From the sequence record OZ035773.1: DNA of 64,000 bases; one strand, written 5' to 3'. How positions within the stretch are numbered: the first letter of the stretch is position 1; the number at the start of each line of letters is the position of its first letter. This stretch comes from Justusliebigvirus VEcB. The notes under the pieces were generated by a model, which worked only from the letters and a program-made list of their open reading frames with translations, was not told the DNA's origin and did not search any database. A program made the position numbers and the translations under genes. Shown piece by piece: positions 6,671 through 34,452 of the stretch.

Positions 6671-6733
6671 CTAATGTTTAGAACATTGGCTATAATATAA
6701 GCTGCATATAATAAGCTATACAATAATAAACAT

Positions 6734-7261: not shown

Positions 7262-7486
7262 TGAGGGGGACGGTCGGGAAAAATCGGGGGGCGCTGAAAA
7301 TCGCGTTAAGCACCTCTCGCAAGCGAGCAGTATTTTGCGGCAAGTTATTGATATTATTGACTTTACGCTTATGAAAAGGGGGTGTGTCGAAATAAATCGG
7401 GTATACCGGAAAATTTTTGTGGCATAGATATTTATTTGTCTATATTATGTACAAAGGGGTGTGTTAAAAATATTAGGTATATATAG
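7262..7486. repeat. three imperfect ~30 bp iteron-like direct repeats
   Basis: gggg-tgtgtcg-aaataaatcgggtata-like units at 7262-7296, 7375-7405, 7454-7484. Confidence 0.5.
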
Positions 7487-7627
7487 AATAATTGATAGGG
7501 AAATCCTATACTAATTCCTCCATTAATGATGTTTCTATGTTGCTGTTCTTGTAATAGATGAAAAGACGCTGTATGATGTGTGGCATGAAACGTAATCCTA
7601 CAACGTAATCTTATAAAGGAGTCTGAT

Positions 7628-19575: not shown

Positions 19576-19581
19576 AAATAA

Positions 19582-19611
19582 AGCCCCTAGAATCGCTTCT
19601 AGGGGCTTTTG
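19582..19611. terminator. bidirectional rho-independent terminator at strand switch
   Basis: agcccctag-loop-ctaggggct flanked by A and T runs. Confidence 0.6.
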
Positions 19612-21348: not shown

Positions 21349-21387
21349 ATAAAGCCCCTGATTGGGGCTTTGGTTAAGTTTTACGGA

Positions 21388-21996
21388 TTATACCAGACTT
21401 TTAAGGTACTTGTCAAGGGCTTCTTGATCACCTTGACAAACATAGCAACGGAAGTCTTGAGCAGAAGGTTCTTTGTCCTCGTCCCAATCCCAATAAACAG
21501 TACCTTTATAACGTGAACCTGGGAACTCGAAATATGCTGTATGAGTAATATGATGTGGGCCACCCCAAAACTGTGTAAAAGTAAATTGAGGATACGCTGC
21601 TTTAACTGTATTTTCAAACCAAGTTTTACGATCTAACGCTTCGTTTATAAAATAAGCATGGCGTTCCATTTCATCCCAGTTTTTCCAAACGCATTTTTCA
21701 TCCAGAGAAAAAACAAAATCTTCACTGTTGAATTCATCTGTATCTTCCAAAATATCATAATCATGTGCACTAGGTATCCACCATCCAGCTTCTAATAGTG
21801 CTTTCACGGGTACAAAACCTTTTTCAGCATATTGATCAAATTCTTTTACTCTACGTACAGTGCAGTATTCATCTTCACCACCAATGTCCAGTAGACAAGC
21901 ACCTTTGCGTCTTGCTGCAAGACCATGTGTATCAAAAACTACAACACTACCTTCACCATCTTCACGATCTACTTGATATGCAACTTTTTGAGTCAT
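21388..21996 (-). CDS. hypothetical protein (202 aa)
   Basis: six-frame ORF in same operon. Confidence 0.5.
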   Translation of the reverse strand: MTQKVAYQVDREDGEGSVVVFDTHGLAARRKGACLLDIGGEDEYCTVRRVKEFDQYAEKGFVPVKALLEAGWWIPSAHDYDILEDTDEFNSEDFVFSLDEKCVWKNWDEMERHAYFINEALDRKTWFENTVKAAYPQFTFTQFWGGPHHITHTAYFEFPGSRYKGTVYWDWDEDKEPSAQDFRCYVCQGDQEALDKYLKSLV

Positions 21997-21997
21997 A

Positions 21998-22135
21998 TTA
22001 CCCCCAATGTATATGGGAAATTAACCAAAAGATAAATTCCCAAAAACACCAACCAAGAAAAGTTAATGGAATTATAAAAGCTATCAGAGCAGTCTTCCAG
22101 CCTTTCCACAATGTTTCCACTATTCCTCCATACAT
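21998..22135 (-). CDS. small membrane protein (45 aa)
   Basis: manual translation; fills gap between methyltransferase and 202-aa gene; not in track. Confidence 0.3.
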   Translation of the reverse strand: MYGGIVETLWKGWKTALIAFIIPLTFLGWCFWEFIFWLISHIHWG

Positions 22136-23109
22136 TTAAGAATATGTGCAATGACAGGTATAGTCCAACCGTTACCTAACATCTTATATGCTTGTGTGTT
22201 ACTACTCACTTTAAAGTAATCATCTGGCACACCTTGCAAACGGCAACACTCTTTAACGGTTAACTTTCTATAATGTACGCCTTCACTCAATTTTTCAAAA
22301 GCATCTAAATATCTTCCAGGTGGAATGTAAGCTAATAGTACGTCTTTCGGCACAGTCGTGAGGCAACGAGTTTTTTCACTATCCTGAACTTCCAAACAAT
22401 GTACCAAACGATCAGTTTTAGATGTACTACGTTTGCCATTCTCATTAATTCTACGCCCATATATTGCTGCTGGATAAAAAACCAGTTGTCTGCGACTCTT
22501 TTCAAAATACTGTTCTATATTACCACCTTTGGCATAATTTGCATCTATGCAATAAGCCTTATCTCTGTCTACAATACTATCATCTTCAATGATATCTTGC
22601 AACACTTCATTGGTAATATCCCAAGGTTTTATTTCCCAGTTGCACCAGTATAAACGTTGTCTATTCTGTGCTGTGAAATCTGCGGAGTTAATGAATACGG
22701 GATCAACACCTAAGTAACTTGTGATCACGTTTTCCCACTCCACTTTCATCTTAACGTTTTCAAGCATGAACTTAACATTAGGGTTAAACTTTTTAATATG
22801 TTCAAGAATCTCAACATATTCGAAGAATAGCTTAGATCGCGGATCTTGAAAGTTCAAACCTTTACCGGAAGAAGAGAAGCCTTGACACGGACTACCACCT
22901 AACAAAAGATCAATTTCTCCCCACGGGATATCCCATTCTCTCCATTTTGTAACATCACCTAACTGAATAATATCTGGAAAATTTGCTTGGCTTTCAGCTA
23001 TGGCAAATTTGTCTAATTCTGAAGCATAATATGTATCTACTTCAATACCTGCACTTTTTAGCGCAAGCATTCCTCCTGACATACCATCAAAAAGACTTAA
23101 AATTTTCAT
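22120..23109 (-). CDS. DNA (cytosine-5)-methyltransferase
   Basis: FDGMSGG (motif I) and GGSPCQGFSSSG (PCQ catalytic motif). Confidence 0.85.
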   Translation of the reverse strand: MKILSLFDGMSGGMLALKSAGIEVDTYYASELDKFAIAESQANFPDIIQLGDVTKWREWDIPWGEIDLLLGGSPCQGFSSSGKGLNFQDPRSKLFFEYVEILEHIKKFNPNVKFMLENVKMKVEWENVITSYLGVDPVFINSADFTAQNRQRLYWCNWEIKPWDITNEVLQDIIEDDSIVDRDKAYCIDANYAKGGNIEQYFEKSRRQLVFYPAAIYGRRINENGKRSTSKTDRLVHCLEVQDSEKTRCLTTVPKDVLLAYIPPGRYLDAFEKLSEGVHYRKLTVKECCRLQGVPDDYFKVSSNTQAYKMLGNGWTIPVIAHILKCMEE

Positions 23110-23111
23110 TA

Positions 23112-23522
23112 TTACTTCTTCTCCTTAACACTAGCTGGTAATTCTGCCTTGAGGCAGAAGTTTAAACGGTAAGCCTCATTCTCATTTAAAAGTACAGATT
23201 CACACGATAACCAGAACAAGAGATCCTCAATACCAGGGCTGTTAAGCCAACAGTGCAGAAGAGAATGTTGTTCTATATCAATGTAATTTAGTAACAAGGC
23301 TTGTAAGGCGTAACTAGTTCCTGTCGTTTTTGCTTTTTCAAGGATGATATTGTGTTTACTAACAACTTTCTTCCTAAGACCAAACCATTTATTAACAACA
23401 ACAGTCTCTTCTTGTAGTTGTTTTCTTATTTTCTCACATTCTTTAACTACAATCTGCATCTTATCCACCGCTGATTGAAGTTGTTCTTTTGTTGGGTTTA
23501 CAAAATAATCACTATAATACAT
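23112..23522 (-). CDS. hypothetical protein (136 aa), first gene of operon
   Basis: six-frame ORF abutting methyltransferase start. Confidence 0.5.
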   Translation of the reverse strand: MYYSDYFVNPTKEQLQSAVDKMQIVVKECEKIRKQLQEETVVVNKWFGLRKKVVSKHNIILEKAKTTGTSYALQALLLNYIDIEQHSLLHCWLNSPGIEDLLFWLSCESVLLNENEAYRLNFCLKAELPASVKEKK

Positions 23523-23579
23523 GCTAAACTCCTCTTCTGTTTTTCTGTAGTTTATTCTAAAAAACTGGTGTTGTCAACA

Positions 23580-23601
23580 AAAAACCCGCCGAAGCGGGTT
23601 T
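23580..23601 (-). terminator. rho-independent terminator
   Basis: aacccgc-cgaa-gcgggtt; minus-strand TTGACA lies just downstream. Confidence 0.55.
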
Positions 23602-23604
23602 ATA

Positions 23605-23862
23605 TTATTCTACAGGAACTTCTTCACCAAGAGAAACTTCTAAACGAAATGCTTTACTTTCAATACATTCACTACCTTTTAGAAAATCAAATTGCACTAT
23701 AGACTGACTTAATAGAATAGATAGAATCACATCGCAATCTTCACTAGGAGCTAGATGTTTGTATTCTTCCTTCAAGGTAACATCATAAAAACATAAATCC
23801 CCTACTCCTAGTTCATCCCATCCTTCCCACGCATCTACAAAGTTAAACTCTAAACCTTTCAT
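23605..23862 (-). CDS. hypothetical protein (85 aa)
   Basis: six-frame ORF. Confidence 0.45.
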   Translation of the reverse strand: MKGLEFNFVDAWEGWDELGVGDLCFYDVTLKEEYKHLAPSEDCDVILSILLSQSIVQFDFLKGSECIESKAFRLEVSLGEEVPVE

Positions 23863-24383
23863 ACAACCTCCTCGTAATTGTTATTGTGTTTTACTGTCTC
23901 AACATACAATAAAGATTCCATCTGTAATACATTACCAGAAATAATAAATCCATAAGACATTTCAGATGTGTCTATATCATATGCCCCGTCTTCCGGTTTA
24001 GCAAAGTGTAAAACTATTTCATCTGGGTTTTCTTCATCCCATAGTTTAGAAATTTTCCGAACCAGGATGTTAGCTAAAATAGTTGACATTCGGGATAAAG
24101 CTGTATCCTCATATCTTTTAAAACCTAGCCAATAGAGGTTAAGAATTTCTACTTCTTCTTGTGTTAAGTTTTTGTCTAAAGTAATCAGATCTGTAGAGCA
24201 CGGCGTTTTTGTTGAACCTACTGTTACAAAACCTGGGGTGTTATGAAAAACAATCTTAACTTTATCACGTATAAAGTTTAAACCTTGTGCCTCAACTATA
24301 TATTGTATTGTAGGTACAATATCGTTTGTTACATCAATAAAACTATCTTTAATGACGCTTATATTATTTCTGGACAAGACCAT
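23859..24383 (-). CDS. hypothetical protein (174 aa)
   Basis: six-frame ORF. Confidence 0.5.
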   Translation of the reverse strand: MVLSRNNISVIKDSFIDVTNDIVPTIQYIVEAQGLNFIRDKVKIVFHNTPGFVTVGSTKTPCSTDLITLDKNLTQEEVEILNLYWLGFKRYEDTALSRMSTILANILVRKISKLWDEENPDEIVLHFAKPEDGAYDIDTSEMSYGFIISGNVLQMESLLYVETVKHNNNYEEVV

Positions 24384-25026
24384 TCTCCTCTAAAATAGGC
24401 TTAATAAATTCGAAAATTTGTTTTTTACTTTTACCTCGAATATTAAAACAAGGAACATTAAACTTTTTAGCCAACATCCAAGCTGTTCTTGTACCACCTA
24501 AAGGATCTCCATTTTTATCTGTGTTTGCACAAGCTAAAAGAAAACAAGATGGTTTTGGATTCTCAAGATCTTTTCCAAGAACTTGGTGGATATTTCTTTG
24601 ATGTAATTTTTTAGCACCTTGAGATAATCTGTCCCAAGCTGGATGCAATTCTTTTGCATATTGTAAGGTTAAAGCATAGTTTACACTATCTGGTCTGTCA
24701 AGAACAATAACCTCTCCCTCTATTTCATTACCTTTAAATGAGAGCCAAGGGATGTATATTTCTTTCTTTGTATTGTTCCCACTATCATATACCCCGCATT
24801 CAAATGCGGAATCTGCACCTTCTGCTTTACCAGATCGCAAAATGAACCATGTAGATAACCATTTTGCAACAGATACCATAGTATCCCATTCTTCGTCTGT
24901 AATATCTCTGCTACCAACACCTGTGTAGAATAAATCGCTCATGGTTTTCTCCTTAACAAGTAATATTGGGAGTAACAATTGGATTAACAATTGGAGTAAT
25001 AGGGTACGTAAACCAAGGGCTTCCAA
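24364..25026 (-). CDS. putative Rossmann-fold nucleotide-binding protein (SLOG/DprA-like); true start probably internal
   Basis: GVGSRD and SGKAEGADSAFECG glycine-rich motifs; weak call. Confidence 0.35.
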   Translation of the reverse strand: MEALGLRTLLLQLLIQLLLPILLVKEKTMSDLFYTGVGSRDITDEEWDTMVSVAKWLSTWFILRSGKAEGADSAFECGVYDSGNNTKKEIYIPWLSFKGNEIEGEVIVLDRPDSVNYALTLQYAKELHPAWDRLSQGAKKLHQRNIHQVLGKDLENPKPSCFLLACANTDKNGDPLGGTRTAWMLAKKFNVPCFNIRGKSKKQIFEFIKPILEENGLVQK

Positions 25027-25273
25027 TTTCCCAAGGATAATAAGGTCTACGAGGATCGTATGGAGGAGTTACTTCAGGCTTTTTCCAAATCTCCGCTAGT
25101 TGTTTCTTCCATTTATCCCTTGCTGTCTCATTATCTTCATCCAACTGTTCATCATTATCTTTTATTTCTGGTTTTGGAAATAAAAGCTCTTTGACTAACT
25201 CAACATCTTCCGTCTCAATAGTAGTTTCTTTCGTAAGTTCTCCTACTGTTTCTTTAATTGTGATTTTATACAT
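24953..25273 (-). CDS. hypothetical proline-rich protein (106 aa)
   Basis: six-frame ORF; overlaps neighbour so one start is wrong. Confidence 0.35.
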   Translation of the reverse strand: MYKITIKETVGELTKETTIETEDVELVKELLFPKPEIKDNDEQLDEDNETARDKWKKQLAEIWKKPEVTPPYDPRRPYYPWEIGSPWFTYPITPIVNPIVTPNITC

Positions 25274-26019
25274 TAGTCCTCCTCTAAAGTAGAATAAAAT
25301 TGTAACGTATTTGAATCATCAAAATATGCAAAGGTTAAATTACCATTGAAGCAAGATCCTGTGTCCATATATACCCTATTACTGCTAATCACAGGTTTAG
25401 GAACATAAGAATGTCCGTGAAATACATAATCTACTCCTGAAACCCTAGGAAGAAGAATCCCTTCAAGTGCGCAATCTATCATATCACGATCCCACATTAA
25501 AGATTCTGTGAATCGAGAAACTTGCTCTTTATTCATATTCAAACAAAATGGCAAAACTTCTGTCACTGGTAAATGTTCCAAAACTGAAGGATACCCACCG
25601 TGAATAAAGCCTAGTTTCATATTACGATAATTGACAACAAGTACAACAGGTAAATCTTCTAGCATCAAAGCAAGAGCAGTTGCACCCTCTTCTCCACACT
25701 CGTCTAGAACTGTATGGCCTCCGTTCTGAAACCAACATTCGTAATATCGTCTATCACCTTCTAGCAACCCTTTAATCATCATATCTTCATGATTTCCACG
25801 AATACCATAACGATTTAGCTTTCTGGTGAATTCAACAACACAACGAAAATTCTGCTTGCCGCGATCTGTAAGATCTCCTAAAGATACAACAACATCTTGA
25901 TCTCGGATACCTAAAGTATTAACACCTTTCTGGTACAAATCAAAACAACCATGTAAATCACCAATAATAAACAGGTCTTGATCATCTTTTACACTAATTT
26001 CTTGATATACTAGCATCAA
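25273..26019 (-). CDS. Ser/Thr protein phosphatase (lambda-type metallophosphatase)
   Basis: GDLHG, GDLTDRG, GNHE motifs. Confidence 0.8.
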   Translation of the reverse strand: MMLVYQEISVKDDQDLFIIGDLHGCFDLYQKGVNTLGIRDQDVVVSLGDLTDRGKQNFRCVVEFTRKLNRYGIRGNHEDMMIKGLLEGDRRYYECWFQNGGHTVLDECGEEGATALALMLEDLPVVLVVNYRNMKLGFIHGGYPSVLEHLPVTEVLPFCLNMNKEQVSRFTESLMWDRDMIDCALEGILLPRVSGVDYVFHGHSYVPKPVISSNRVYMDTGSCFNGNLTFAYFDDSNTLQFYSTLEED

Positions 26020-26342
26020 CTCTCCTCAAAATCCATAAGTATAAAGATATTAACTTTACCTTCTATATTATGTTCTACAACAAGGTCTGCAAATTCTTTG
26101 TAGGCTTTTTCTTCTATTTGTTCAATATGAGACGCTACATCTTTGTATATAGCGTCACCATCTACTTTAACAAGGAGGAATAGAGATCTCACTTCAATCT
26201 CTTTATTTTTACGGGGTAGAAAATCGACGGCTTCTTGTATACGCCAGCCGAGATACCCTGGAGTCCTTTGAATATCCTCCAAATGACTTTCTAAGATTTC
26301 CCTTCCTTTGTCTATTAAAGCCTGTTCTGTCGTTATTTTCAT
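26016..26342 (-). CDS. hypothetical protein (108 aa)
   Basis: six-frame ORF. Confidence 0.45.
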   Translation of the reverse strand: MKITTEQALIDKGREILESHLEDIQRTPGYLGWRIQEAVDFLPRKNKEIEVRSLFLLVKVDGDAIYKDVASHIEQIEEKAYKEFADLVVEHNIEGKVNIFILMDFEES

Positions 26343-26352
26343 CCCCTTCTCC

Positions 26353-26925
26353 TTAATGTGTTAATGAAACTGCATAACTAAACACAGGTTCAGATATTAC
26401 ATCGGCTACAGTAATAAAAACGTCCTCGTCTTGCGTTGTTTCTACACGACATACAGTTACACCATTTACCACGAATTCAACGCAATGTGGAATATCTTCA
26501 CAAACGAAGGTAGTGTAAGTAACACCCAAAGCATCATACAAAGATTTAACAGTGTTTGCAAGTGCCGCAGTTTCTTCTTTTTCTGAGACAATGAATGCTG
26601 TAACAATAAGATTGTTTGCATAGTTTAGACTGTCCTCTATAGCCAATGATTTACAAGGTAGTAATGCAAAATATTTACCTGGTTTAATCAGACCTGCTTC
26701 CCATTGATTCAAAATTGCCTGGGATGGTTTAGTAATATAAAATAGATTTTCACTTGGGTTATCAATATTACTTCTGGCGATACAACGTGAAGGATTATTA
26801 ATATCAAATACATGATCAAAATCTACACAAACAGGTAAACTGAAAGGTGTAAATTTTTTACCTAATAATCCTATGGCTGATAATATGTTTGCTGTGCTTA
26901 TCTTCCCGTTAAAAGCTAAACGCAT
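26353..26925 (-). CDS. hypothetical protein (190 aa)
   Basis: six-frame ORF. Confidence 0.5.
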   Translation of the reverse strand: MRLAFNGKISTANILSAIGLLGKKFTPFSLPVCVDFDHVFDINNPSRCIARSNIDNPSENLFYITKPSQAILNQWEAGLIKPGKYFALLPCKSLAIEDSLNYANNLIVTAFIVSEKEETAALANTVKSLYDALGVTYTTFVCEDIPHCVEFVVNGVTVCRVETTQDEDVFITVADVISEPVFSYAVSLTH

Positions 26926-26936
26926 ATTTAACTCCT

Positions 26937-27140
26937 TTAACTAGCGACCGTAACTTCCGAACTTTCTTCTTTCGTACTGTCTACGATATGCCTGGTGGCA
27001 ATATACGAGACTTGCCAGTTACCATCTGGTGTAGTCTCAATAAGTACCCTATCTACTTCGAGAAAATGCAAAAATTCAACCATCGCTCGCTTCGATAGGA
27101 ATTGTTTTTTAACAGTCTCCTCAAAAGATTGAACTGCCAT
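26937..27140 (-). CDS. hypothetical protein (67 aa)
   Basis: six-frame ORF. Confidence 0.4.
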   Translation of the reverse strand: MAVQSFEETVKKQFLSKRAMVEFLHFLEVDRVLIETTPDGNWQVSYIATRHIVDSTKEESSEVTVAS

Positions 27141-27149
27141 GTTTCCTCC

Positions 27150-27812
27150 TTATTTAATATTCAATTTTGCACAAAGACGTTGTACCGCTTTGGCATCGAA
27201 CAAACTCCCACGAATAGTTCTCTTTCCTGATTCATTCAGATGCTTTGCAATCGTCATATATGGCGTTTTACAAGCTCTGTATGCAACTAAAGAATCTTTT
27301 AAAGAAAGCGCAAACTCTCTTGAGCGTTTTGCTTCTTCCGTTTTCGTATAGTCTGTTCTTTTGTATTTAGGGTTTGCTGCACCAAGAAGCGTTCCCTTCG
27401 CTTTTGCTACCTTAAGGCTCTTCTTAACACGATCAGATATTGCACGAGCCTCTTCTTCTGCCAGAACTGCTAAAATATTTATTATCATATTTTCAGCGGA
27501 GGGCATAGTTGCTATTCGTACATTAATCATCTCTAACAAGGTTGCAACAGAAGCTGTGTTACGTCCAAGACGGTCAACCTTAGCAACAACAAGTGTAGCA
27601 CCTGTTTCTTTGCAAAGATTAACAGCTTTTACAAGCTCTCTACGTTGCTTCCAATCGCCTTTACCCGAATAAAACTCTGCAAAGCTACCTATAATAGTAT
27701 AATTTTCTTGTGAATCCAGGAAGCGTTGAATATCTGCTTCCTGTGATTCTATACCATACTGGTTGCCTTGTTGTTTCTTCTTAGAAAGTCGATGATATAG
27801 TACAAACTTCAT
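27150..27812 (-). CDS. serine recombinase (resolvase/invertase family)
   Basis: YHRLSKKKQQ catalytic-Ser region and VAKVDRLGRN motif; AGGAGG RBS. Confidence 0.8.
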   Translation of the reverse strand: MKFVLYHRLSKKKQQGNQYGIESQEADIQRFLDSQENYTIIGSFAEFYSGKGDWKQRRELVKAVNLCKETGATLVVAKVDRLGRNTASVATLLEMINVRIATMPSAENMIINILAVLAEEEARAISDRVKKSLKVAKAKGTLLGAANPKYKRTDYTKTEEAKRSREFALSLKDSLVAYRACKTPYMTIAKHLNESGKRTIRGSLFDAKAVQRLCAKLNIK

Positions 27813-27869
27813 AATACCCTCCTGTTCTGTTACAGGAAGTATGCACTACCTTAATGTTAAAGTCAACAG

Positions 27870-28085
27870 TTAAGTAGTGGTAATATCATCCTCTTGAATA
27901 CCAGGGTCAACTTCTGCAAAGATAGCCTCTACAGGAATTTCTTCACCTGCTATTCTAGAAAGAAGCACTGAACCAATAGCTTTTGCGTGTTCTTCGGATT
28001 CCGCATAAACATTAGTTCCTGTGTCTTTTTTCTTAGTTTCGTTAAAATATACCAGATAGTAATTGTATGCCATTATTCTTCCCAA
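27870..28085 (-). CDS. hypothetical protein (71 aa)
   Basis: six-frame ORF. Confidence 0.4.
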   Translation of the reverse strand: MGRIMAYNYYLVYFNETKKKDTGTNVYAESEEHAKAIGSVLLSRIAGEEIPVEAIFAEVDPGIQEDDITTT

Positions 28086-28324
28086 TCGTTGTTACGAGCA
28101 CTTTCAAGAACCTTGACAACTTCTGCATACTCTACAGCTAAACCAGCGCACACTTCAGCTTGTTTTGCAATTGCTTGTTTAAAGAACATAGCGATTGCAA
28201 CACTCTGTGTTGTGTGAATGTTATCTGCTTTAGTTGATACATGAAGATCAAAATCTTCTTCATCAAAGGTGAGTTCCATAGTAACAATAAATTTCTCGGT
28301 CATAAAAATGCTCCTCTTAAACAA
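28073..28324 (-). CDS. hypothetical protein (83 aa)
   Basis: six-frame ORF. Confidence 0.4.
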   Translation of the reverse strand: MFKRSIFMTEKFIVTMELTFDEEDFDLHVSTKADNIHTTQSVAIAMFFKQAIAKQAEVCAGLAVEYAEVVKVLESARNNDWEE

Positions 28325-28826
28325 AATAGAAAGGTTGAGTTAAACCCAGCCTGTTTTTTGGGTCGTAGACGTACCAAGCATATGCTGTCTTATCAGTACC
28401 ACCTGCAACAAAAGATGGTCGTTCAGAAAGAACAATCAAATTTGTTGGTGGATTCTGTTTATGGAACTCCCTTCGTTTAATAGACTCTAGGAACCCAAGA
28501 CGCAACAAGTATATGCAAACGTCTGCTTCTTTTAAGCTCTTTTGCAAGAACTCAAGTGCAAGTTTGAATGGGGGATTTGTGATTATAATATCCGGCTTAG
28601 TATGCCATTCGTGGTTAAAATAATCTTTCCCTTCTTCTAACTCACAATATTCTGATCCTTCTGGAAAATGTTGATAAATTGCAGCAGCAGCGCCTTTACA
28701 CGGTTCTGCAAAAATAAAACCTTCTTCTTTAAGGTTATTAAAATCTATTACACTAAATAATGCATTTATACATTTTTGTGGAGTAGGATAGTAATCAGTT
28801 GGTGGACGATCATACTTATTTGCCAC
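28317..28826 (-). CDS. DNA N6-adenine methyltransferase (small)
   Basis: TNPPF catalytic motif with upstream DYYPTP. Confidence 0.65.
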   Translation of the reverse strand: MANKYDRPPTDYYPTPQKCINALFSVIDFNNLKEEGFIFAEPCKGAAAAIYQHFPEGSEYCELEEGKDYFNHEWHTKPDIIITNPPFKLALEFLQKSLKEADVCIYLLRLGFLESIKRREFHKQNPPTNLIVLSERPSFVAGGTDKTAYAWYVYDPKNRLGLTQPFYFV

Positions 28827-29244
28827 TACTTAAAATCTCCTCTTTTGTGATTTCAGGGTCTTCTTCAAAAACCATAATATCTCTTAAGAACGTTAATTCT
28901 TCCATAGATACTGGTATTGTATCTTCTTCTGTTTTTCGTTTACATAAATCGTCAAGAAAGTTTTTAAAGTTTTCTGACAAATCGTAAAATTTCAACAGTT
29001 GATAATCACAGGAGGAGATCCTATCTAGTTCTAACATTCTTTCTAAGATATTTTCTGTGTTGCCGTACAACACACGAACTTCTCCGAAAGGGTTGACTGA
29101 ATATTGTGAAGTTCTGAACCATCCCTTTTTAGATACAGTGTAACGCTGTTCTGCTAAACTTTCAATAAAATTTTTAGCTCTTTTACAGTTTTGTTCTAAA
29201 GAGTAGTAGGCTTTTTCTACAAAGATTACAGGTACTGGTAACAT
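28816..29244 (-). CDS. hypothetical protein (142 aa)
   Basis: six-frame ORF. Confidence 0.5.
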   Translation of the reverse strand: MLPVPVIFVEKAYYSLEQNCKRAKNFIESLAEQRYTVSKKGWFRTSQYSVNPFGEVRVLYGNTENILERMLELDRISSCDYQLLKFYDLSENFKNFLDDLCKRKTEEDTIPVSMEELTFLRDIMVFEEDPEITKEEILSSGK

Positions 29245-29258
29245 ATCTCCTCCTAATA

Positions 29259-29277
29259 ACCCCCGTGAGGGGGTTTA
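29259..29277 (-). terminator. rho-independent terminator after HslV-like gene
   Basis: ccccc-gtga-ggggg plus T run. Confidence 0.5.
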
Positions 29278-29284
29278 TGTTAGA

Positions 29285-29938
29285 TTAATTATCAGAGGAT
29301 ACTTTATCAAGTTTTTCAGAGACTGTCAATACTTTTTCTTGTGATTCTTTCATTTCTGCTAAAATACTTTCAGCTTCATCACTATCAGGATCACCAGTCA
29401 ACAGCATACTAATTAGTTGCTCCTTGCTGAAGTTCAGAATATCTTCCGCTGTTAGCTCCAGTTGTTCTTCAATCTCTTCGACAAAAGTTTCACCGCCTGA
29501 AAAAGCATCTCGTAGTTTTGCAACTTCCATCGCTTCTTCTGGGGTTGCCCCAGCATCTAAAGCTGCTAAAGCAAAATCTGCCCCACTACCAACAGCATAG
29601 TAATCTTCAGTTAAAGGATATGCTCGCGTTGGATTATTACCCTCGTGCATATAAATTTTACCGTCTGGGTGAACAACCAATGCCACAAACTCTTCATCTT
29701 CTTTATCAGGATCTGACTGGATCACCAAACCTGGGATTGTCTCTTGTGCTGCCTGGCACTGTAAGTTTTGTTCGAACCAAGAAAAGAAAGTCAGGATAGA
29801 AGACAGACGTCCTGCACCACCAACAAGGTAATCCCCAATTTTACGCACTTTCTTAAAATTTAAAGTGTCTACTCGATTACCTACTGTTACTTTACCGTCA
29901 GATAGAATTTTGTTATGTGTTGCAATAATTGTTGTCAT
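29285..29938 (-). CDS. HslV-like Ntn-hydrolase peptidase with acidic C-terminal extension
   Basis: N-terminal MTTII (Thr nucleophile after Met), GGAGRLSSILTFF, YAVGSGADFALAALDAG align with HslV. Confidence 0.7.
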   Translation of the reverse strand: MTTIIATHNKILSDGKVTVGNRVDTLNFKKVRKIGDYLVGGAGRLSSILTFFSWFEQNLQCQAAQETIPGLVIQSDPDKEDEEFVALVVHPDGKIYMHEGNNPTRAYPLTEDYYAVGSGADFALAALDAGATPEEAMEVAKLRDAFSGGETFVEEIEEQLELTAEDILNFSKEQLISMLLTGDPDSDEAESILAEMKESQEKVLTVSEKLDKVSSDN

Positions 29939-30429
29939 TGTACTTCCTCCTGTAGTGTTTTAAGGACTGCTTTACCACCGCTTACATACTTACGGAGGTA
30001 ATCAATAGCTCTTAGTGTTTCTTTATCCACAAGAATTTTATTAGTTCTTGTCAATGGATGATTCAGTAAGTCACTGCAATTTCTTACTAACATAGATTTC
30101 TTGTGAAAGATACTGCTAAGAAAAAGAAGTTTAGAATCTTCTTCATCAATCAGGAGTAATTCTGAATTAGACCCAGCTACATTTATTATACACTCAAACA
30201 AGCCTTCTTGACTATCAGATAATTCCTGGTAATATTTAGTTAGCCAATCCTCTCCTTTTAACCAACTAAAAAACATCTGAACTTTTTGCAAAGTTGTCAT
30301 GTTCTCTAAACGAAGAGATATTTCTTTTTCAATCTTGTCAATATAAATCTGTCTAAACTCATTCGGCTTAACTAAGCCAGCTTGATAGCATTCATCAATA
30401 CCATTGCGATCAATCTCAATTAGCGTCAT
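29935..30429 (-). CDS. hypothetical protein (164 aa), translationally coupled to HslV-like gene
   Basis: 4 nt overlap with downstream gene. Confidence 0.5.
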   Translation of the reverse strand: MTLIEIDRNGIDECYQAGLVKPNEFRQIYIDKIEKEISLRLENMTTLQKVQMFFSWLKGEDWLTKYYQELSDSQEGLFECIINVAGSNSELLLIDEEDSKLLFLSSIFHKKSMLVRNCSDLLNHPLTRTNKILVDKETLRAIDYLRKYVSGGKAVLKTLQEEVQ

Positions 30430-30465
30430 TTAACCTCCATAATAGGCATCCTTGCCTTGTAATTA

Positions 30466-31218
30466 TTAATATACTTCCGTGATGAACTGAGACAAACGGG
30501 AACGTTGGTTATCAGCAGTTGTCATTTCAACATAACCAATAAAATCTACAATAGCTTCCCTTTCTCCTTCTTCGTTAATAGGAACAACACGATCTAACAA
30601 ATCACCTAACCCGTTAGCTCTTCGTTTAATTGCATATGTTTGATTAACATCGCCCATAATGACAATACGTGTATTAAGACCTGCTCGCTCAAGGAGAAGT
30701 TTTACTGTGTTTGGTGACATAAGTTGAACTTCATCAATAAGAATAATGCTGTTATCCCACGTAGCACCTAGTGCATAGTTCGGAATATTAAGTTCAATTT
30801 TGCCACTTGCAATATCGTTTTCCAATTTATTTGCAGTCATAAACTGTTGGAAAATTCTTTTAGTTGACTCGTAGTGTGCTGCTAGTTTATCAGTCTTATC
30901 TCCAGATAAGAAACCGATTTGGTCATCACCTACTTCTGTCGGGTTTTTAAGGAAAATCAACTTTCTGAAGTCACCAGCTTTAAGCATTTGCAATGCTTTC
31001 CATAGTGCTGTTGTCGTTTTTCCTGTTCCTGCTGGGGCATTAACAATGGTTAAATCATTCCAAACCATGCTTCTTACAATAGCTTCTTGATTCCCAACAG
31101 GGGTAAATTCATCAAGACGGTAATCATCATTTCCTACTGCTTTAGCCGCATAACGACTGGCACGTTTGTCATCATTGGCTGCTGATTGACGACGAGCCTT
31201 TGCGGTTTTATTTCCCAT
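30466..31218 (-). CDS. phoH: PhoH-like ATPase
   Basis: Walker A NAPAGTGKTT, Walker B ILIDEVQ, IMGDVNQ. Confidence 0.85.
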   Translation of the reverse strand: MGNKTAKARRQSAANDDKRASRYAAKAVGNDDYRLDEFTPVGNQEAIVRSMVWNDLTIVNAPAGTGKTTTALWKALQMLKAGDFRKLIFLKNPTEVGDDQIGFLSGDKTDKLAAHYESTKRIFQQFMTANKLENDIASGKIELNIPNYALGATWDNSIILIDEVQLMSPNTVKLLLERAGLNTRIVIMGDVNQTYAIKRRANGLGDLLDRVVPINEEGEREAIVDFIGYVEMTTADNQRSRLSQFITEVY

Positions 31219-31233
31219 GTTTGCACTCCTTAT

Positions 31234-31255
31234 AAAAGGGGCTTTCGCCCCTTTG
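31234..31255 (-). terminator. rho-independent terminator
   Basis: ggggc-tttc-gcccc plus T run. Confidence 0.55.
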
Positions 31256-31256
31256 T

Positions 31257-31757
31257 TTAGTTATAAGCGTCTAATGTTCCAGTTTTAAGCACCTGAATTA
31301 CACGCTCTGCGCGATTAGGCGTTTGGCGATACCATTTACTTTTACGTAAATTTATAGAGGCTTGAGTATAATATGAATTACTCACTAAAGTCAAGCTATT
31401 TTTGAAAGATTCTGCACCTTTCAATCCCATTTGAAATACCATATTAATAATAGCCATTTTACGATTAGGACTTACTTTATCGTAAATAGGAGATAATATG
31501 GTGCTTGAATGGATTTGTTGTATCGCTTTCTTTACGTCACTCTCAAAGATTCTTCTAGCTTCCGCTTCAGTAATAACTCCATTGGTTTTTCTACCTACTA
31601 AGTTATCAAGAATGCGTATAGCTTCTGCTTTATCTTTGAGTTTTGTCAGAAGGTGTCCAATACCAACTGTCCAATACCCTTCGGTATCAGGATATACAGT
31701 TAGCTTTAGTCCTTCATCAAAACGTAACATATCAAACACATCAACTACTTTAGCCAT
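31257..31757 (-). CDS. T4-type lysozyme (endolysin, glycoside hydrolase)
   Basis: FDMLRFDEGLKLTVYPDTEGYWTVGIGHL matches T4 lysozyme N-terminus. Confidence 0.85.
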   Translation of the reverse strand: MAKVVDVFDMLRFDEGLKLTVYPDTEGYWTVGIGHLLTKLKDKAEAIRILDNLVGRKTNGVITEAEARRIFESDVKKAIQQIHSSTILSPIYDKVSPNRKMAIINMVFQMGLKGAESFKNSLTLVSNSYYTQASINLRKSKWYRQTPNRAERVIQVLKTGTLDAYN

Positions 31758-31769
31758 GTTTTCCTTATA

Positions 31770-31913
31770 TTAGTCGCCCTCCCCATGATCTAGCTCTTGA
31801 AACAGTAGGTGTTCAGGAGACATTTCACGTTTAGGCTTCGTCTTTTTAGTTTGGGACTTAAGCTCTGTTGCCAAAGCACGAGAAAAGATCTTACGTTTCT
31901 GTTTACCTTTCAT
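31770..31913 (-). CDS. small basic hypothetical protein (47 aa)
   Basis: manual translation; not in track. Confidence 0.25.
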   Translation of the reverse strand: MKGKQKRKIFSRALATELKSQTKKTKPKREMSPEHLLFQELDHGEGD

Positions 31914-31917
31914 ATTG

Positions 31918-32184
31918 TTACTCCGCAATCTGAGCCATGAATTCACGTAGTTCAGAAAAACCTCCTACGTGGGTTAGCTGTTCACCATCTTCCACAAAAA
32001 TCTGAGGAAATGTGCGTGGTAGAACACCTGTTTTCTCTAAAACCAGATTCTGAATCTGATCTAAAGAATAGTCTTCATCTAAGGTAAGGTATTTAAAATC
32101 CTGTTCACGCTGTTCTAGTAGAATCTTAGCGTTAGTGCAGAAAGGACAATTTGGTTTACCGTAGATAATAAAATTCATTTTCAC
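31918..32184 (-). CDS. glutaredoxin (NrdC-like redoxin)
   Basis: CPFC active-site motif; 88 aa. Confidence 0.75.
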   Translation of the reverse strand: MKMNFIIYGKPNCPFCTNAKILLEQREQDFKYLTLDEDYSLDQIQNLVLEKTGVLPRTFPQIFVEDGEQLTHVGGFSELREFMAQIAE

Positions 32185-33011
32185 TCCTTGTTTAAAAGTA
32201 TAGTTAAAGTTCTTACAATACCGCTATCAACACTTCGCGGATTTAAAGTAGGATCTGTTTTTAAATAAGATGTTGCTGGTCTGACTGCTTTGGAATTATA
32301 GGTTGAAGCAGACACAGGATTAACTGTAACAGATAAATCTATAACAAGAAATATCTTACGTGCAAAATCATACCAAGAAATATAATCTGCACCTGCATAG
32401 TGTACAATTTTACTATTTACACCATCTTTTACAAGTTTAAAAATTGTTTCTGCAAGATCAGGTGCATAAGTAGGACATGACAAATGATCACATACTACAT
32501 TAAATTCTTTTTGACCACCGTTGTAGCGTTCCAACATAGTTTTCAAAAAGTTATGTCCAAATTCACTATAAACAGAAGCTGTTCTGATAATAAGTGCTGT
32601 AGGACAAACTGTTTGTACTAAAGTTTCACCTAATTGTTTACTGTAACCGTAGGTGTTCAAGGGGTTTGTTTTACTATCTTCTGTGCCAGCAACATGCCCA
32701 TCAAAAACATAGTCTGTTGAAATATGTACAAACTGTATCAGTAAATCATTACATGCTTTGGCAATGTTTGTTGCACCGTATGCATTAACATTTATACAGG
32801 TGTTAACATCTTCTTCAGCTTTATCTACTGCCGTGTAAGCCGCACAATTCACAACAACATCAGGCACATGCTGTACAAGACTATTCATAACATCTTTAAA
32901 GTTGGTAATGTCTACATCACTTGCTTCAATCAAAATAACATCTTCGGGCGCAACTTTTGCCAAAGACTGTCCTAATTGACCTTTTGAACCAAAGATTAAA
33001 AATTTTGTCAA
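32181..33011 (-). CDS. rmlD: dTDP-4-dehydrorhamnose reductase
   Basis: N-terminal GxxGQLG Rossmann motif; YTAVD; operon position. Confidence 0.8.
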   Translation of the reverse strand: MTKFLIFGSKGQLGQSLAKVAPEDVILIEASDVDITNFKDVMNSLVQHVPDVVVNCAAYTAVDKAEEDVNTCINVNAYGATNIAKACNDLLIQFVHISTDYVFDGHVAGTEDSKTNPLNTYGYSKQLGETLVQTVCPTALIIRTASVYSEFGHNFLKTMLERYNGGQKEFNVVCDHLSCPTYAPDLAETIFKLVKDGVNSKIVHYAGADYISWYDFARKIFLVIDLSVTVNPVSASTYNSKAVRPATSYLKTDPTLNPRSVDSGIVRTLTILLNKE

Positions 33012-33562
33012 AATATGATCTCCTTTAGTGTTTTGGCTTGCTGATCTTTTTGTGACAAGATAGGTTTAAAATTAATATCATTAAAGATTAAATCAAAACC
33101 CCAATCAATATTGATATCTGGATCATTCCACGCAAGACTACACTCTGAAGTCGGATCGTAATATTCTGTACATTTATATTCAAAATCAGCAATGTCACTA
33201 ATCACAACAAAGCCATGAGCGAAACCAGGAGGAATCCAAAATTGTGTTTTATTCTTTTCAGATAAGAGAACACCTACCCATTCTCCAAATGTTGGACTAC
33301 CAACTCTAATATCCACAGCAACATCATAAACTTCACCACGAACACAACGTACTAACTTCCCTTGTGGGTTTTTCTTTTGAAAATGAAGCCCACGTAGAAC
33401 TCCTCGGATAGAACGTGAATGGTTATCTTGGACAAAGTTTTGTTTACCTATGTATTGATCATATAAAGCCTGATTAAAACTTTCTAAGAAAAAACCACGT
33501 TCATCTCCGTAAACGTCTGGTTGAATGATCAACAAATCTTCGATTTTTGTTGCTTGAATCAT
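33008..33562 (-). CDS. rmlC: dTDP-4-dehydrorhamnose 3,5-epimerase
   Basis: cupin-type RGLHFQ region; size and operon position. Confidence 0.8.
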   Translation of the reverse strand: MIQATKIEDLLIIQPDVYGDERGFFLESFNQALYDQYIGKQNFVQDNHSRSIRGVLRGLHFQKKNPQGKLVRCVRGEVYDVAVDIRVGSPTFGEWVGVLLSEKNKTQFWIPPGFAHGFVVISDIADFEYKCTEYYDPTSECSLAWNDPDINIDWGFDLIFNDINFKPILSQKDQQAKTLKEIIF

Positions 33563-33574
33563 TTAATCTCCCCT

Positions 33575-34444
33575 TTATTTTAATTTAAGTAAATACTTGC
33601 CGTAGTCTGTTTTACTTAAAACCTCTCCAGAACTTTTTACAGAATCTAAAGTAATCCATTCATTTTTAAAAGCAATCTCTTCTAGGCATGCAACCTTCAT
33701 ACCTTGTTGCTTTTCTATTGCATGAACAAATTGAGATGCTTCCATAAGACTTTCATGTGTTCCTGTATCCAGCCAAGTGAAACCTCTTCCTAGCTTACAG
33801 ACACGTAAAGCCTTTTCTTTCCAGTACATCTCATTTATATCTGTGATCTCTAACTCTCCTCTAGCAGAAGGCTTAACGCTTTTAGCTTTCTGTATAACAG
33901 AATTATCGTAAAAGTACAAGCCTGTAATTGCATAGTTGCTTTTTGGTGCTTTTGGTTTTTCTTCAATACTTACCACTGTACCTTCAGAATCAAACTCAAC
34001 AACACCAAATCTTTCAGGATCATTTACGTGATACCCAAAAATATTAGCTCCACCATTCTTTTCAATATGTTCTTTAGCAGAATCTAAAATGCTACCAAAA
34101 CTCTGACCAAAGAATAAATTATCACCTAGCACAAGTGCTACAGAATCTTCACCAATAAAGTTCTCACCAATAATAAACGCTTCTGCTAAACCTTTTGGGC
34201 TATCCTGTATTGCATACTGTAGGGAAATACCAAAAGAAGAACCGTCACCTAGAAGATTTACAAAATTAATTTGATCTTCTGGTGTTGTAATTATTAGTAT
34301 TTCCCTAATTCCAGAAAGCATTAGGACAGAGAGTGGATAATAAATCATAGGTTTATCGTAAATTGGTAATAGTTGTTTACTAACCCCTTTAGTAACTGGG
34401 TAAAGTCTTGTTCCACTACCACCTGCTAAGATAATACCTTTCAT
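33575..34444 (-). CDS. rmlA: glucose-1-phosphate thymidylyltransferase
   Basis: [16 protein letters not shown] signature. Confidence 0.85.
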
Positions 34445-34452
34445 ACTCCTCC

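Follow-up and report, generated by a model that had tools for sequence, protein, structure and literature searches.

The conserved serine recombinase of the phi92-like phages, referred to here as gp053, is a real and intact protein that is catalytically competent as far as its sequence can tell, and we tentatively read it as an early accessory resolvase-type recombinase acting at one site per phage genome copy, a reading to which we assign a probability of about 40%. The gene was analysed within a 64,000-nucleotide window of Justusliebigvirus VEcB (OZ035773.1), and the source phage is a strictly lytic, phi92-like myovirus of E. coli in the genus Justusliebigvirus. The protein is 99.1–99.5% identical to the corresponding gene products of phi92-like phages and is already in database annotation: RefSeq names phi92 gp053 a "DNA invertase," and the best PHROG match carries the same name (PHROG 125; 1.5e-31), with PHROG 95 "integrase" matching as well (4e-25). 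The enzyme is ordinary in kind, and its family is well known. The literature searched, which did not include the original phi92 genome paper (PMC3457257), contained no discussion, biochemistry, or genetics of gp053. Features of the locus are collected in Table 1.

Table 1. Features of the gp053 locus, in window coordinates.
Feature	Position	Strand	Remarks
Serine recombinase CDS	27150..27812	-	220 aa plus stop; orthologue of phi92 gp053 (YP_009012384)
Catalytic domain and helix alpha-E	27384..27812	-	Residues 1–143; Y6, R8, S10, Q24, E46, G50, R57, D80-R81-L82-G-R84, E121, R128
Putative four-helix DNA-binding domain	27153..27383	-	Residues 144–220; helices 155–170, 172–180, 185–194, 207–216
Ribosome-binding site AGGAGG	27818..27823	-	5 nt before ATG; annotated in phi92 as "rbs motif AGGAG" at the same place
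Putative sigma-70-type promoter TTGACT-17 nt-CATACT	27838..27866	-	In the 57-bp gap upstream of gp053; scan score 9/12, by itself at chance level given the local AT-richness
Weak dyad CACTAC-N24-GTAGTG	27844..27879	-	Overlaps the putative promoter; candidate operator or recombination site only; 9/12 arm matches

A preliminary description of the locus had recognized a small serine recombinase with the catalytic serine region and a DRLGR motif in a virulent phage, and this identification stands: the open reading frame is complete, PF00239 is matched with E = 1.7e-21 as the sole Pfam domain at E ≤ 0.01, and S10, the predicted nucleophile, is conserved together with the D80-R81-L82-G-R84 motif. 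In an alignment of 27 homologues with 31–99% identity (alignment A2), Y6, R8, S10, Q24, E46, G50, R57, D80, R81, L82, R84, E121, and R128 are invariant or at least 90% conserved. The description had named the absence of the catalytic serine or arginines from an alignment as grounds for dropping the assignment, and in these homologues the residues are intact. An AlphaFold2 (AF2) model (pLDDT 89) adopts the serine recombinase fold, so that both the profile and the catalytic alpha/beta fold of the superfamily are present. The catalytic domain begins at residue 2, ahead of a C-terminal DNA-binding domain; an IS607-family serine transposase, which has the reverse domain order, was ruled out, there being no MerR-like HTH ahead of the catalytic domain.

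Within the superfamily, gp053 combines traits of small and large members. Tn3/gamma-delta resolvase, Sin, and beta share its catalytic fold and residue set (equivalents of R8, S10, R45, D67-R68-x-x-R71, and E118/E124 in gamma-delta numbering, mapped by reading motifs), are of similar size (about 200 aa), and have the same succession of N-terminal catalytic domain, helix E, and small helical DNA-binding domain, with remote sequence similarity to gp053 (E of 1e-5 to 1e-3). Unlike these resolvases, gp053 has, like large serine recombinases, an additional segment, Q14–Y19, that separates the serine motif from the following conserved Q, and its C-terminus is not of the HTH_7 type. The best structural matches of the model are large serine integrases, which align over 143–157 residues, compared with 93–108 for the small resolvases. 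Assignment to a curated NCBIfam subfamily was rejected, as no profile came near its own cut-off: the "master DNA invertase" Mpi aligns over nearly the full length with 32 bits against a cut-off of 272, and CcrB aligns over residues 4–212 with 35 bits against a cut-off of 900.

The C-terminal domain is modelled with pLDDT 86–96 beyond a flexible linker (145–160) and comprises four helices instead of the three of a Hin-like HTH_7-type domain. The domain looks like the initial part of the "recombinase domain" found in large serine recombinases. PF07508 is absent from the window protein itself, and its orthologues give sub-threshold, partial matches to it (profile positions 14–51 of 102, E of 9e-4 to 0.03). 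A Pfam search with the C-terminal 76 aa alone returned nothing at E ≤ 1, and the domain alone had 7 matches in all among 1.8 billion representatives. Its evolution outpaces that of the catalytic domain (61% versus 88% identity to Klebsiella phage FKP3), and its identity between phages of different hosts falls from 61% to 19%.

The structural matches and PHROG 95 would suit an integrase for occasional lysogeny or a plasmid-like carrier state, which we nevertheless consider extremely improbable. Serine integrases have a full recombinase domain (PF07508), a zinc ribbon, a coiled coil, and a length above about 400 aa; gp053, with its 220 aa, has no zinc ribbon, coiled coil, or full PF07508. Bxb1, phiC31, TP901-1, SPbeta SprA, and CcrB are more than twice its size, and what gp053 misses is the remaining recombinase domain along with the zinc ribbon and coiled coil, which control directionality in the large enzymes. 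A sensitive blastn search with the 3.5 kb at 26000–29500 gave no match in 5,426 complete Escherichia coli genomes (20,395 chromosome and plasmid records), and no attP/attB pair or prophage was found in this search. The phi92 annotation contains no repressor or lysogeny module at positions 1–50000, and phi92-like phages are consistently described as lytic.

In 55/55 Justusliebigvirus records the gene occupies one and the same position, with at least 98.6% amino acid identity and no presence/absence polymorphism, and the 7-kb region around it is covered completely and in a single piece in every one of them. Homologues with 51–78% identity occur in related genera (78.5% in the Klebsiella relatives, about 57% in Phapecoctavirus, every matched record of which carries the gene), and others are found in lytic phages of Shewanella and Vibrio. 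With a dN/dS of about 0.07 against FKP3 and a catalytic-domain pN of 0.087, these comparisons place gp053 under strong purifying selection. Such data bear on the possibility that the gene is selfish or semi-autonomous, kept by its own recombination without benefit to the phage, or is the leftover of such a gene. The position does differ between genera (about 19.5 kb in a minus-strand block in phi92 versus about 10 kb in a plus-strand block in Phapecoctavirus), catalytic modules have been exchanged between lineages, and the small open reading frames (ORFs) flanking gp053 are conserved only among close relatives. The copy in Schickermooser is disrupted by at least 6 small deletions, all in the first 300 nt and with clean flanks, although these frameshifts may be local assembly errors, and this phage was still isolated as a plaque-former. 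Against selfishness stand the fixed position and near-identity across Justusliebigvirus, the purifying selection, the lack of terminal inverted repeats, transposase, or target duplications, and a gene order common to Shewanella phage 1/4 (see below), and we regard this explanation as quite unlikely. The preliminary description had entertained a mobile-element remnant while seeing no transposon ends or attachment site; the latter observations were borne out, and the remnant is disfavoured by the same absence of transposase and terminal repeats, by the universal presence of the gene in the Justusliebigvirus and Phapecoctavirus records matched, and by its low dN/dS and retained catalytic residues. 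As a separate observation that counts against the resolvase-type reading, the shifted gene position between genera also fits a semi-autonomous gene.

Klebsiella phage 05F01 is particularly informative. Its locus is orthologous, with a gp54 homologue upstream and a Ser/Thr phosphatase gene downstream. The N-terminal domain of its recombinase is 54% identical to the Gin/Hin-like class of Vibrio phage PWH3a-P1 and 28–31% identical to the phi92 class, whereas its C-terminal domain is 57–61% identical to phi92/FKP3 and 22% identical to PWH3a-P1. Judged by these identities, one lineage has swapped its catalytic module and kept its DNA-binding module, and the substituted domain is foreign and equally intact. 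Because a different catalytic domain thus sits on the same C-terminal domain, the comparison indicates that selection probably acts on catalysis at a conserved target.

To what extent the target can be found in the phage genome was examined from several directions. Among inverted and direct repeats at 20000–35000, only pairs of 18–28 nt at 70–90% identity were detected, at chance level, and no inverted pair lies within 7 kb on either side of gp053, in agreement with the earlier remark that no hix/gix-like inverted repeats are apparent. Self-blast of the complete 148-kb relative alia (98% identical), evaluated against 10 Markov-3 nulls, gave 46 pairs at 36 bits or more compared with 0–6 expected, all of them promoter-plus-leader-hairpin repeats, members of three terminator families, or RBS/start regions; the inverted pairs above the null across this genome are exclusively transcription terminators, with no recombination-site pair. 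One inverted pair, at about 19.2 and 23.6 kb of the window, outlined a candidate invertible segment 3.5 kb from gp053 and was rejected, being the terminator AAACCCGCtccgGCGGGTTTT oriented with its operons. Window positions 24000–55000 are colinear and in one piece in about 55 isolates (shorter only where records start or end inside), positions 1–25000 match relatives on one strand, and there are no minus-strand high-scoring pairs against alia or phi92; these isolates are represented by consensus assemblies, in which population-level heterogeneity is invisible. Of the two grounds for refutation in the preliminary description, the lack of recombination sites or variants came true, as neither was detected, but the loss of catalytic residues did not.

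These results weigh most directly on the explanation implied by the database names, a DNA invertase that flips a phage segment, for example, host-range genes, between inverted sites, like Gin, Cin, and Hin. These enzymes belong to the same superfamily and are phage-encoded in Mu and P1, gp053 is weakly similar to Gin (E of about 8e-4), and the PHROG 125 match, the nearly full-length (if far sub-threshold) Mpi alignment, and the Gin-like catalytic domain of the 05F01 and Vibrio-phage versions (E = 3e-21 to Gin) point the same way, as do the several tail fibre and spike genes of phi92-like phages. Invertible segments such as G of Mu and C of P1 are normally found in both orientations, whereas the approximately 55 isolates, sequenced independently, are colinear. 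Unlike Gin, Hin, Cin, and Pin, gp053 has another DNA-binding domain, without HTH_7, and comes without inverted crossover sites, an invertible segment, or orientation variants. Moreover, the tail fibres of phi92 are reported to be co-expressed on one virion and not switched (PMC8594841). The inversion switch suggested in the preliminary description is accordingly decidedly unlikely, and a tail-fibre inversion switch, an integrase, and transposon debris are all disfavoured.

A single site per replicon suffices for a resolvase, and finding no repeated site pair is consistent with this. The res or six type of site has 4–6 half-sites in about 90–130 bp beside the gene; a scan for clustered half-sites found none beside gp053, although degenerate sites could escape scans of this kind. 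Two places alone had half-site clusters above the null, the terminal region, which is AT-rich, and an array resembling Fur boxes. The palindrome of this array was rejected as a recombination site, since it has an odd centre (13 bp) and fits the Fur consensus of the host. The window has no excess of stringent crossover-like dyads, and the 343-bp terminal repeat has none.

Our best guess is a resolvase-type enzyme because the closest non-phage relatives adjoin Rep and ParA genes. The nearest full-length relatives outside phages (34–36% identity over 96–100% coverage, C-terminal domain included) are encoded next to genes for Rep and ParA/partition functions, on plasmids of 7–19 kb that are non-mobilizable and belong to unrelated bacteria, including Phaeobacter piscinae pP18_i and a 19-kb plasmid of Spirosoma rhododendri; a relative on a 6.4-kb Synechococcus plasmid has no annotated Rep or Par genes. 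A Rep/Par neighbourhood is the usual place for multimer-resolution recombinases. The plasmid proteins are annotated as "recombinase family protein" only and are uncharacterised, so that their suggested role as multimer resolvases comes from position and functional transfer to gp053 is by context alone. Resolution of replication or packaging multimers, one of the roles floated in the preliminary description, therefore survives as the best option on the strength of these relatives, with the missing res-like site weighing against it.

In the resolvase-type reading, gp053 would be transcribed early from its own host-type promoter. With its S10 nucleophile and an R8/R57/R81/R84 pocket, the N-terminal domain would break both DNA strands in a concerted manner and exchange them by subunit rotation, as is usual in this family, and the fast-evolving four-helix C-terminal domain would recognize a DNA site particular to each lineage. 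Its substrate would be a single site occurring once per genome, of which direct repeats arise when phage DNA replicates or forms concatemers or when homologous recombination joins molecules; recombination between these repeats would yield unit-length or circular templates early in infection. Its role would be accessory, conferring a fitness gain while allowing plaque formation without it, in line with the isolation of Schickermooser as a plaque-former despite its disrupted copy. We infer early expression, the type of reaction, its substrate, and the dispensability of gp053 from the comparisons described here. The proposed reaction, deletion between direct repeats with one site per replicon, is that of Tn3/gamma-delta resolvase, Sin, and beta; unlike these, gp053 has no multi-subsite res that we could find, and its replicon is a lytic phage. 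The gene is not carried by a transposon or plasmid but by a lytic phage with direct terminal repeats and phage early genes as neighbours.

A functional analogue is Cre/loxP of P1, which has one site per genome, cyclises terminally redundant incoming DNA, and resolves multimers; Cre is a tyrosine recombinase of a temperate phage, whereas gp053 is a serine recombinase of a lytic one. The phi92-like genomes have direct terminal repeats of 342–343 bp, and, unlike in the P1 system, the repeat of the present phage yielded no dyad site, which weakens the case for a Cre/lox-like cyclisation site inside it. Separately, a concatemer-packaging phage has no obvious need for resolution, which speaks against the resolvase-type reading, and we know of no virulent phage that uses a serine resolvase for concatemer resolution.

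The lack of a convincing site in the phage genome could also mean that the target lies elsewhere, with gp053 acting in trans on the host chromosome, a plasmid, a prophage, or a rival phage by inversion, deletion, or breakage in the service of takeover, anti-defence, or competition. The gene stands among early genes of host-takeover type, and the divergence of the C-terminal domain (61% to 19%) would fit the tracking of host-specific sequences. Still, we know of no lytic phage with a recombinase directed against the DNA of its host, and we consider this explanation unlikely. Host serine recombinases, PinQ for example, are known to influence phage infection (PMC12529663), which lends it some plausibility, whereas phi92-like phages have a very broad host range, spanning E. 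coli and Salmonella (PMC8594841), and a strain-variable host site would therefore be an unreliable target.

Upstream of gp053, a TTGAC(A/T)-17/18-(-10) layout was recognized by eye at the equivalent position in FKP3, phAPEC8, 05F01, and Shewanella phage 1/4, so that a promoter-like site lies within a conserved upstream gap of 50–70 bp in five lineages; it is a putative early promoter for the host RNA polymerase. The dyad in the 57-bp gap has an estimated chance probability of about 0.3 and is not significant, and its left arm coincides with the last codons of gp54. Among dyads near the gene in the five lineages, only that of Shewanella phage 1/4 (11/12 arm matches) goes beyond chance, at about 0.003. 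The "ACTAC...TAGT" dyads were rejected as a conserved site because their spacings vary (24, 14, and 8 nt) and coding sequence makes up the left arm. The shortness of this gap, its chance-level dyad, and the missing res-like site are further observations at odds with the resolvase-type reading. Dyads that overlap the promoter in several lineages would accord with a sequence-specific DNA-binding regulator, for instance, a repressor of its own or other early promoters with vestigial catalysis, all the more as Tn3/gamma-delta TnpR resolvases double as repressors. However, the catalytic residues are all conserved down to 31% identity, the catalytic half is the more conserved one, and in 05F01 the catalytic domain was replaced by an intact foreign one instead of being lost, making pure regulation very unlikely.

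In a broader and, on balance, doubtful reading, strictly lytic phages with direct terminal repeats (the phi92-like and phAPEC8-like phages, the Shewanella sea-ice phages, and large Vibrio phages, in which the catalytic module is swapped) would share a catalytically active serine recombinase as a conserved early gene, and this enzyme would perform a new step of the lytic cycle. Either incoming or replicating DNA, linear or concatemeric, would be turned into unit circles in a site-specific manner, or the DNA of the host or of a competitor would be rearranged or broken at chosen targets. If so, the 05F01 chimera would show phages re-tooling such enzymes, with one catalytic module replacing another while the DNA-recognition module stays fixed. 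This natural swap, in which the DNA-binding domain is constant, cleanly illustrates the modularity exploited in chimeric recombinases, and gp053 could become a small orthogonal recombinase tool if its target site were found. phi92-like and phAPEC8-like phages are also popular candidates for phage therapy and biocontrol, and automated screens treat "integrase/recombinase" genes as flags of a temperate lifestyle; the conservation of gp053 in strictly lytic phages with no sign of integration should help to interpret such flags.

Finally, gp053 sits in an early/DNA-metabolism block with PhoH, DprA-like, and methyltransferase genes, joined in Shewanella phage 1/4 by a ligase gene. The downstream small ORF gp52 was rejected as a conserved accessory factor, since its conservation ends with phi92/FKP3. 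The DprA-like gene was likewise rejected as an obligate partner, as it occurs in 1,249 phage records compared with 161 for the recombinase and is non-adjacent in Phapecoctavirus. The order PhoH ... recombinase ... DprA-like is common to the phi92-like phages and the distant Shewanella phage 1/4.

The recombinase gene, the ortholog of phi92 gp053, is carried by a phi92-like E. coli myovirus of the genus Justusliebigvirus (subfamily Stephanstirmvirinae), and its coordinates and 220-aa length are as the preliminary description gave them; it has an ATG start, and a 57-bp noncoding gap lies on its 5' side. Residues 4–141 match the resolvase N-terminal domain (Pfam PF00239, E = 1.7e-21), the PHROGs class is "DNA invertase" (1.5e-31), with "integrase" a weaker match, and the solved structures related by sequence, all remote (E = 1e-5 to 1e-3), are those of Sin, the Tn3 and gamma-delta resolvases, and Gin. 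A search of 5.8 billion proteins retrieved 83 homologs, nearly all of 216–248 aa. In an alignment of 27 homologs, with identity down to 31%, residues Y6, R8, S10, Q24, E46, G50, R57, D80, R81, L82, R84, E121, R128, and G140 were invariant or at least 90% conserved. Judged from the alignment, these correspond to the full catalytic set of the serine recombinase family, including the serine region (S10) and DRLGR motif (D80-R81-L82, R84) recognized earlier. Since both fold and catalytic residues are in place, the protein belongs to the serine recombinase superfamily, a well-known enzyme family.

Features of the window and of the phages compared with it (window coordinates unless another sequence is named)
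Feature	Position	Strand	Remarks
Recombinase ORF	27150..27812	-	ATG start, 220 codons
AGGAGG ribosome-binding site	upstream of recombinase ORF	-	strong
phi92 gp051 counterpart	26353-26925	-	two genes downstream of recombinase
Repeat class 1 (OZ035770)	upstream of ~eight small genes		promoter and leader hairpin GGCGGGAAAtggTTTCCCGCC
Repeat class 2 (OZ035770)			three intrinsic terminator families
Repeat class 3 (OZ035770)			ribosome-binding-site/start regions
Intrinsic terminator AAAGGGGCTTTCGCCCCTTT	~19961, 31235-31254, ~44332; OZ035770 32.36 kb, 43.71 kb		five identical copies genome-wide
Terminator AAACCCGCTCCGGCGGGTTTT	~19221, ~23602		three copies
Terminator AAAGCCCCTAGAAtcgcTTCTAGGGGCTTT	19580-19609		
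Direct terminal repeat	6966-7308		343 bp
AT-rich noncoding stretch	~6026-7627		1.6 kb, no long ORF; GC 0.288 for 6001-7000
CTATTTGTTG	6911, 6932, 6956		three spaced copies, abutting terminal-repeat boundary
AATGAATAATGACACTGA	6734-6769		18-mer, two tandem copies
AATGATAATCATT	6060-6072, 6118-6130, 7042-7054, 7237-7249		four copies (<=1 mismatch) in noncoding genome end, last two in terminal repeat
AATGATAATCATT array	OZ035770 80196-80300		five further copies, dense; ~4 kb left of window start
Structured element	6502-6672		~300-460 bp left of terminal repeat
Promoter-leader cassette	~170-5830; OZ035770 81244-91143	+	before ~eight small genes near right genome end
ORF left in Schickermooser recombinase locus	1621-2046 of sequence compared		141 aa
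PWH3a-P1 recombinase	5001-5702 of stretch read		

None of the 55 Justusliebigvirus records lacks the gene (≥98.6% aa identity), and the 7 kb around it match 55 phage records at 97.7–99% identity, each as one unbroken piece. Identity is 78.5% in the Klebsiella clade and ~57% in Phapecoctavirus, and further homologs occur in Shewanella sea-ice phages and in Vibrio, Cellulophaga, and other phages. Relative to Klebsiella phage FKP3, dN/dS is ~0.07, with dS saturated, and the catalytic half (pN 0.087) is far more constrained than the C-terminal half (0.30). By these sequence measures the gene is real, intact, and under selection; the idea that it might be the remnant of a mobile element is disfavored, since the conserved catalytic set, the low dN/dS, and the unbroken occurrence do not describe a decaying relic.

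Database annotation already places the existence and family of the gene on record: the depositors of phi92 labeled gp053 [quoted passage not shown] and RefSeq "DNA invertase," and no discussion of its role was found in the literature searched. The RefSeq name is without support from the present evidence. The preliminary description, which had proposed an inversion switch among other roles, had seen no hix/gix-like repeats by eye, and a search extending 7 kb in both directions from the gene likewise returned no meaningful repeats. The complete 148-kb genome of a 98%-identical relative, phage alia (OZ035770), was assembled and compared with itself, with ten composition-matched random genomes as the null. 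This yielded 46 repeat pairs of ≥36 bits, against 0–6 in the random genomes, all of them transcription or translation signals in three classes, and no pair of recombination sites. All significant inverted repeats of the genome are explained by intrinsic terminator families. One inverted pair 3.5 kb from the recombinase (~19.2 and ~23.6 kb), considered as the ends of an invertible segment, was rejected as an intrinsic terminator. Virtually every isolate was colinear with regions 24000–31000 and 30001–55000, each matched without a break, 1–25000 matched on one strand, and local blastn of the window against OZ035770 and against phi92 1–50000 gave no minus-strand matches at all. The different fibers of phi92 are reported to occur side by side on the same virion (PMC8594841). 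With no inverted sites found and the isolates colinear, the hallmarks of a Gin/Hin-type switch were not seen and the proposed switch is not borne out; the comparison being one of consensus assemblies, low-frequency inversion within a population is possible.

Other known systems fit no better. DNA invertases have the inverted sites, invertible segment, and HTH_7 domain that the gp053-type recombinase lacks, and large serine integrases are more than twice its size and carry extra domains. The protein has neither zinc ribbon nor coiled coil, and a partial, sub-threshold match to the integrase "recombinase domain" appeared only in orthologs. No prophage was found: none of 5,426 complete E. coli genomes matched the 3.5 kb around the gene, even at blastn sensitivity. 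IS607 transposases have the opposite domain order, and, set against the transposon resolvases, neither a transposon nor a res site was found. The lack of transposon ends remarked on earlier was confirmed, with no terminal inverted repeat and no transposase near the gene, and close relatives show no presence/absence polymorphism. No NCBIfam model came near its cut-off, the best (CcrB, Mpi, YneB, and XisF) scoring 18–35 bits against cut-offs of 175–900. The gp053 type is best described as an uncharacterized branch: a short recombinase with a large serine recombinase-like N-terminal motif and a truncated recombinase-domain-like DNA-binding module. There is some room for a semi-autonomous gene. 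Its position varies by genus (~19.5 kb from the left end in a minus-strand block in phi92, ~10 kb in a plus-strand block in Phapecoctavirus), although the PhoH ... recombinase ... DprA-like order recurs in the distantly related Shewanella phage 1/4. Its copy in phage Schickermooser carries six or more small deletions (19 gap columns), all in the first 300 nt and with clean flanks; either the gene is truly inactivated in an isolate that is still viable, or the assembly is locally faulty.

At the orthologous locus of Klebsiella phage 05F01 (Stephanstirmvirinae), a recombinase gene is flanked by a gp54 homolog upstream and by a small ORF and a Ser/Thr phosphatase gene downstream. Its catalytic domain is of another class (Gin match, E = 3e-21), 54% identical to that of Vibrio phage PWH3a-P1 and only 28–31% to those of phi92, FKP3, phAPEC8, and Shewanella, which are 45–88% identical to one another. 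The C-terminal domain, a putative DNA-binding module that has four helices in the window protein, has the opposite pattern (57–61% identity to phi92/FKP3, 22% to PWH3a-P1), with the junction at the hinge that follows helix E (KG-x-L-x-G). The original catalytic module has thus been exchanged for a foreign one, with the DNA-recognition module kept, and we read the swap as selection for catalysis at a particular DNA target, which argues against a purely regulatory protein and against a functionless gene. Why strictly lytic phages would keep an active site-specific recombinase is the question that the gene raises, and this natural swap adds to it. Among ordinary orthologs, the C-terminal domain is 61%, 40%, and 19% identical, versus 88%, 68%, and 50% for the catalytic half, and searched alone it matched only 7 proteins among 1.8 billion representatives, which suggests a lineage-specific recognition domain whose target need not be conserved between genera.

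Two stand-alone 77-aa proteins consist of the C-terminal domain only (62% and 47% identical to recombinase residues 143–219), and the ORF left in Schickermooser is similar; these are either gene-calling fragments or products of recombinase genes that became truncated or frameshifted in other phages. A second class of recombinases, 220–233 aa long and pairing a Gin/Hin-like catalytic domain with a C-terminal domain of broadly the same kind, occurs among small hypothetical genes in PWH3a-P1 and ~20 other Vibrio phage records (129–140 kb). Since this class is conserved in many big Vibrio phages, small serine recombinases recur in large phages with no annotated lysogeny functions in the stretch read.

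The closest full-length nonphage relatives (34–36% identity over 96–100% of the length, C-terminal domain included) are plasmid "recombinase family proteins." On 7.3-kb Phaeobacter and 19-kb Spirosoma plasmids they adjoin replication initiator and ParA/partition genes, the usual place of multimer-resolution recombinases; the context on a 6.4-kb Synechococcus plasmid is uninformative. A resolvase requires only one site per replicon, so the missing repeated sites are compatible with such an activity. In five lineages, the 50–70 bp gap before the gene contains TTGAC(A/T)-17/18-(-10), read by eye (a scan alone is at chance level), and this promoter-like arrangement suggests early transcription by host RNA polymerase. 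Our preferred reading, with a probability of roughly 0.4, is a resolvase-type recombinase that would be made early, as an accessory function, and would act on one site per genome in replicating or incoming phage DNA; the step from an active recombinase with a conserved target to a resolvase on phage DNA is one that we infer. Searches for the site itself came up empty. A promoter-overlapping dyad upstream of the gene, CACTAC-N24-GTAGTG, is at chance level (~0.3), only its Shewanella counterpart being significant; no cluster of res-like half-sites adjoins the gene, and crossover-like dyads are not enriched, with none in the terminal repeat. A phage that packages concatemers also has no obvious need for resolution, which counts against a resolvase. 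The multimer-resolution role suggested earlier thus gains from the plasmid relatives and the one-site logic and loses from the missing site. A target outside the phage genome, in the host, a plasmid, or a competitor, is a serious rival, if an unlikely one.

Phi92-like genomes carry direct terminal repeats of 342–343 bp, and the annotated 343-bp repeat of phi92 and of Salmonella phage UAB_1 aligns inside the AT-rich stretch, placing the physical genome end within the window. The CTATTTGTTG copies and the AATGAATAATGACACTGA tandem are possible terminase or replication signals. AATGATAATCATT gave 7 strand-hits against 0.36 expected, a count reached in 0 of 100 shuffles, and nearly perfectly matches the E. 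coli Fur-box consensus, GATAATGATAATCATTATC; this likeness suggests that the ends of a lytic phage genome are under Fur/iron-responsive control or titrate Fur. The structured noncoding element comprises a 7-bp hairpin and then a 15-bp perfect closing stem around further hairpins (RNA MFE -67.3 kcal/mol, z = -7.5). In Phapecoctavirus, Klebsiella, and Citrobacter relatives, whose proteins are ~57% identical, the element keeps ~80% identity; it has compensatory double changes at 9 of 43 consensus pairs (in only 4 sequences) and no counterpart in Rfam. Candidate roles are those of an ncRNA, a replication origin, or a packaging signal, as RNA or DNA on either strand. The cassette runs from a TTGACA-17-TATAGT promoter through ATCACATAGG and hairpin GGCGGGAAAtggTTTCCCGCC (or variant GGGCGGCAATAGTGCCGC) to a ribosome-binding site and ATG, and looks like an early-promoter family with a conserved 5'-leader stem-loop, possibly serving mRNA stabilization or processing.

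Some database labels also deserve caution. The gp051 product, named "histidyl tRNA synthetase" by PHROGs and RefSeq, has only 190 aa and no Pfam match at E ≤ 0.01, which makes that name doubtful. Four records labeled "Campylobacter phage" (A150, A145, C3, and A110a; MG065639, MG065645, MG065656, and MG065689; stated host C. jejuni) share 97.8% identity with E. coli phi92-like phages in the regions compared, and "Acinetobacter phage vB_AbaM_ABPW7" (OP562383) matches the recombinase gene just as the Phapecoctavirus records from E. coli do, with equal aa identity (57.3%) and E-value; contamination or misassignment may lie behind these host labels.
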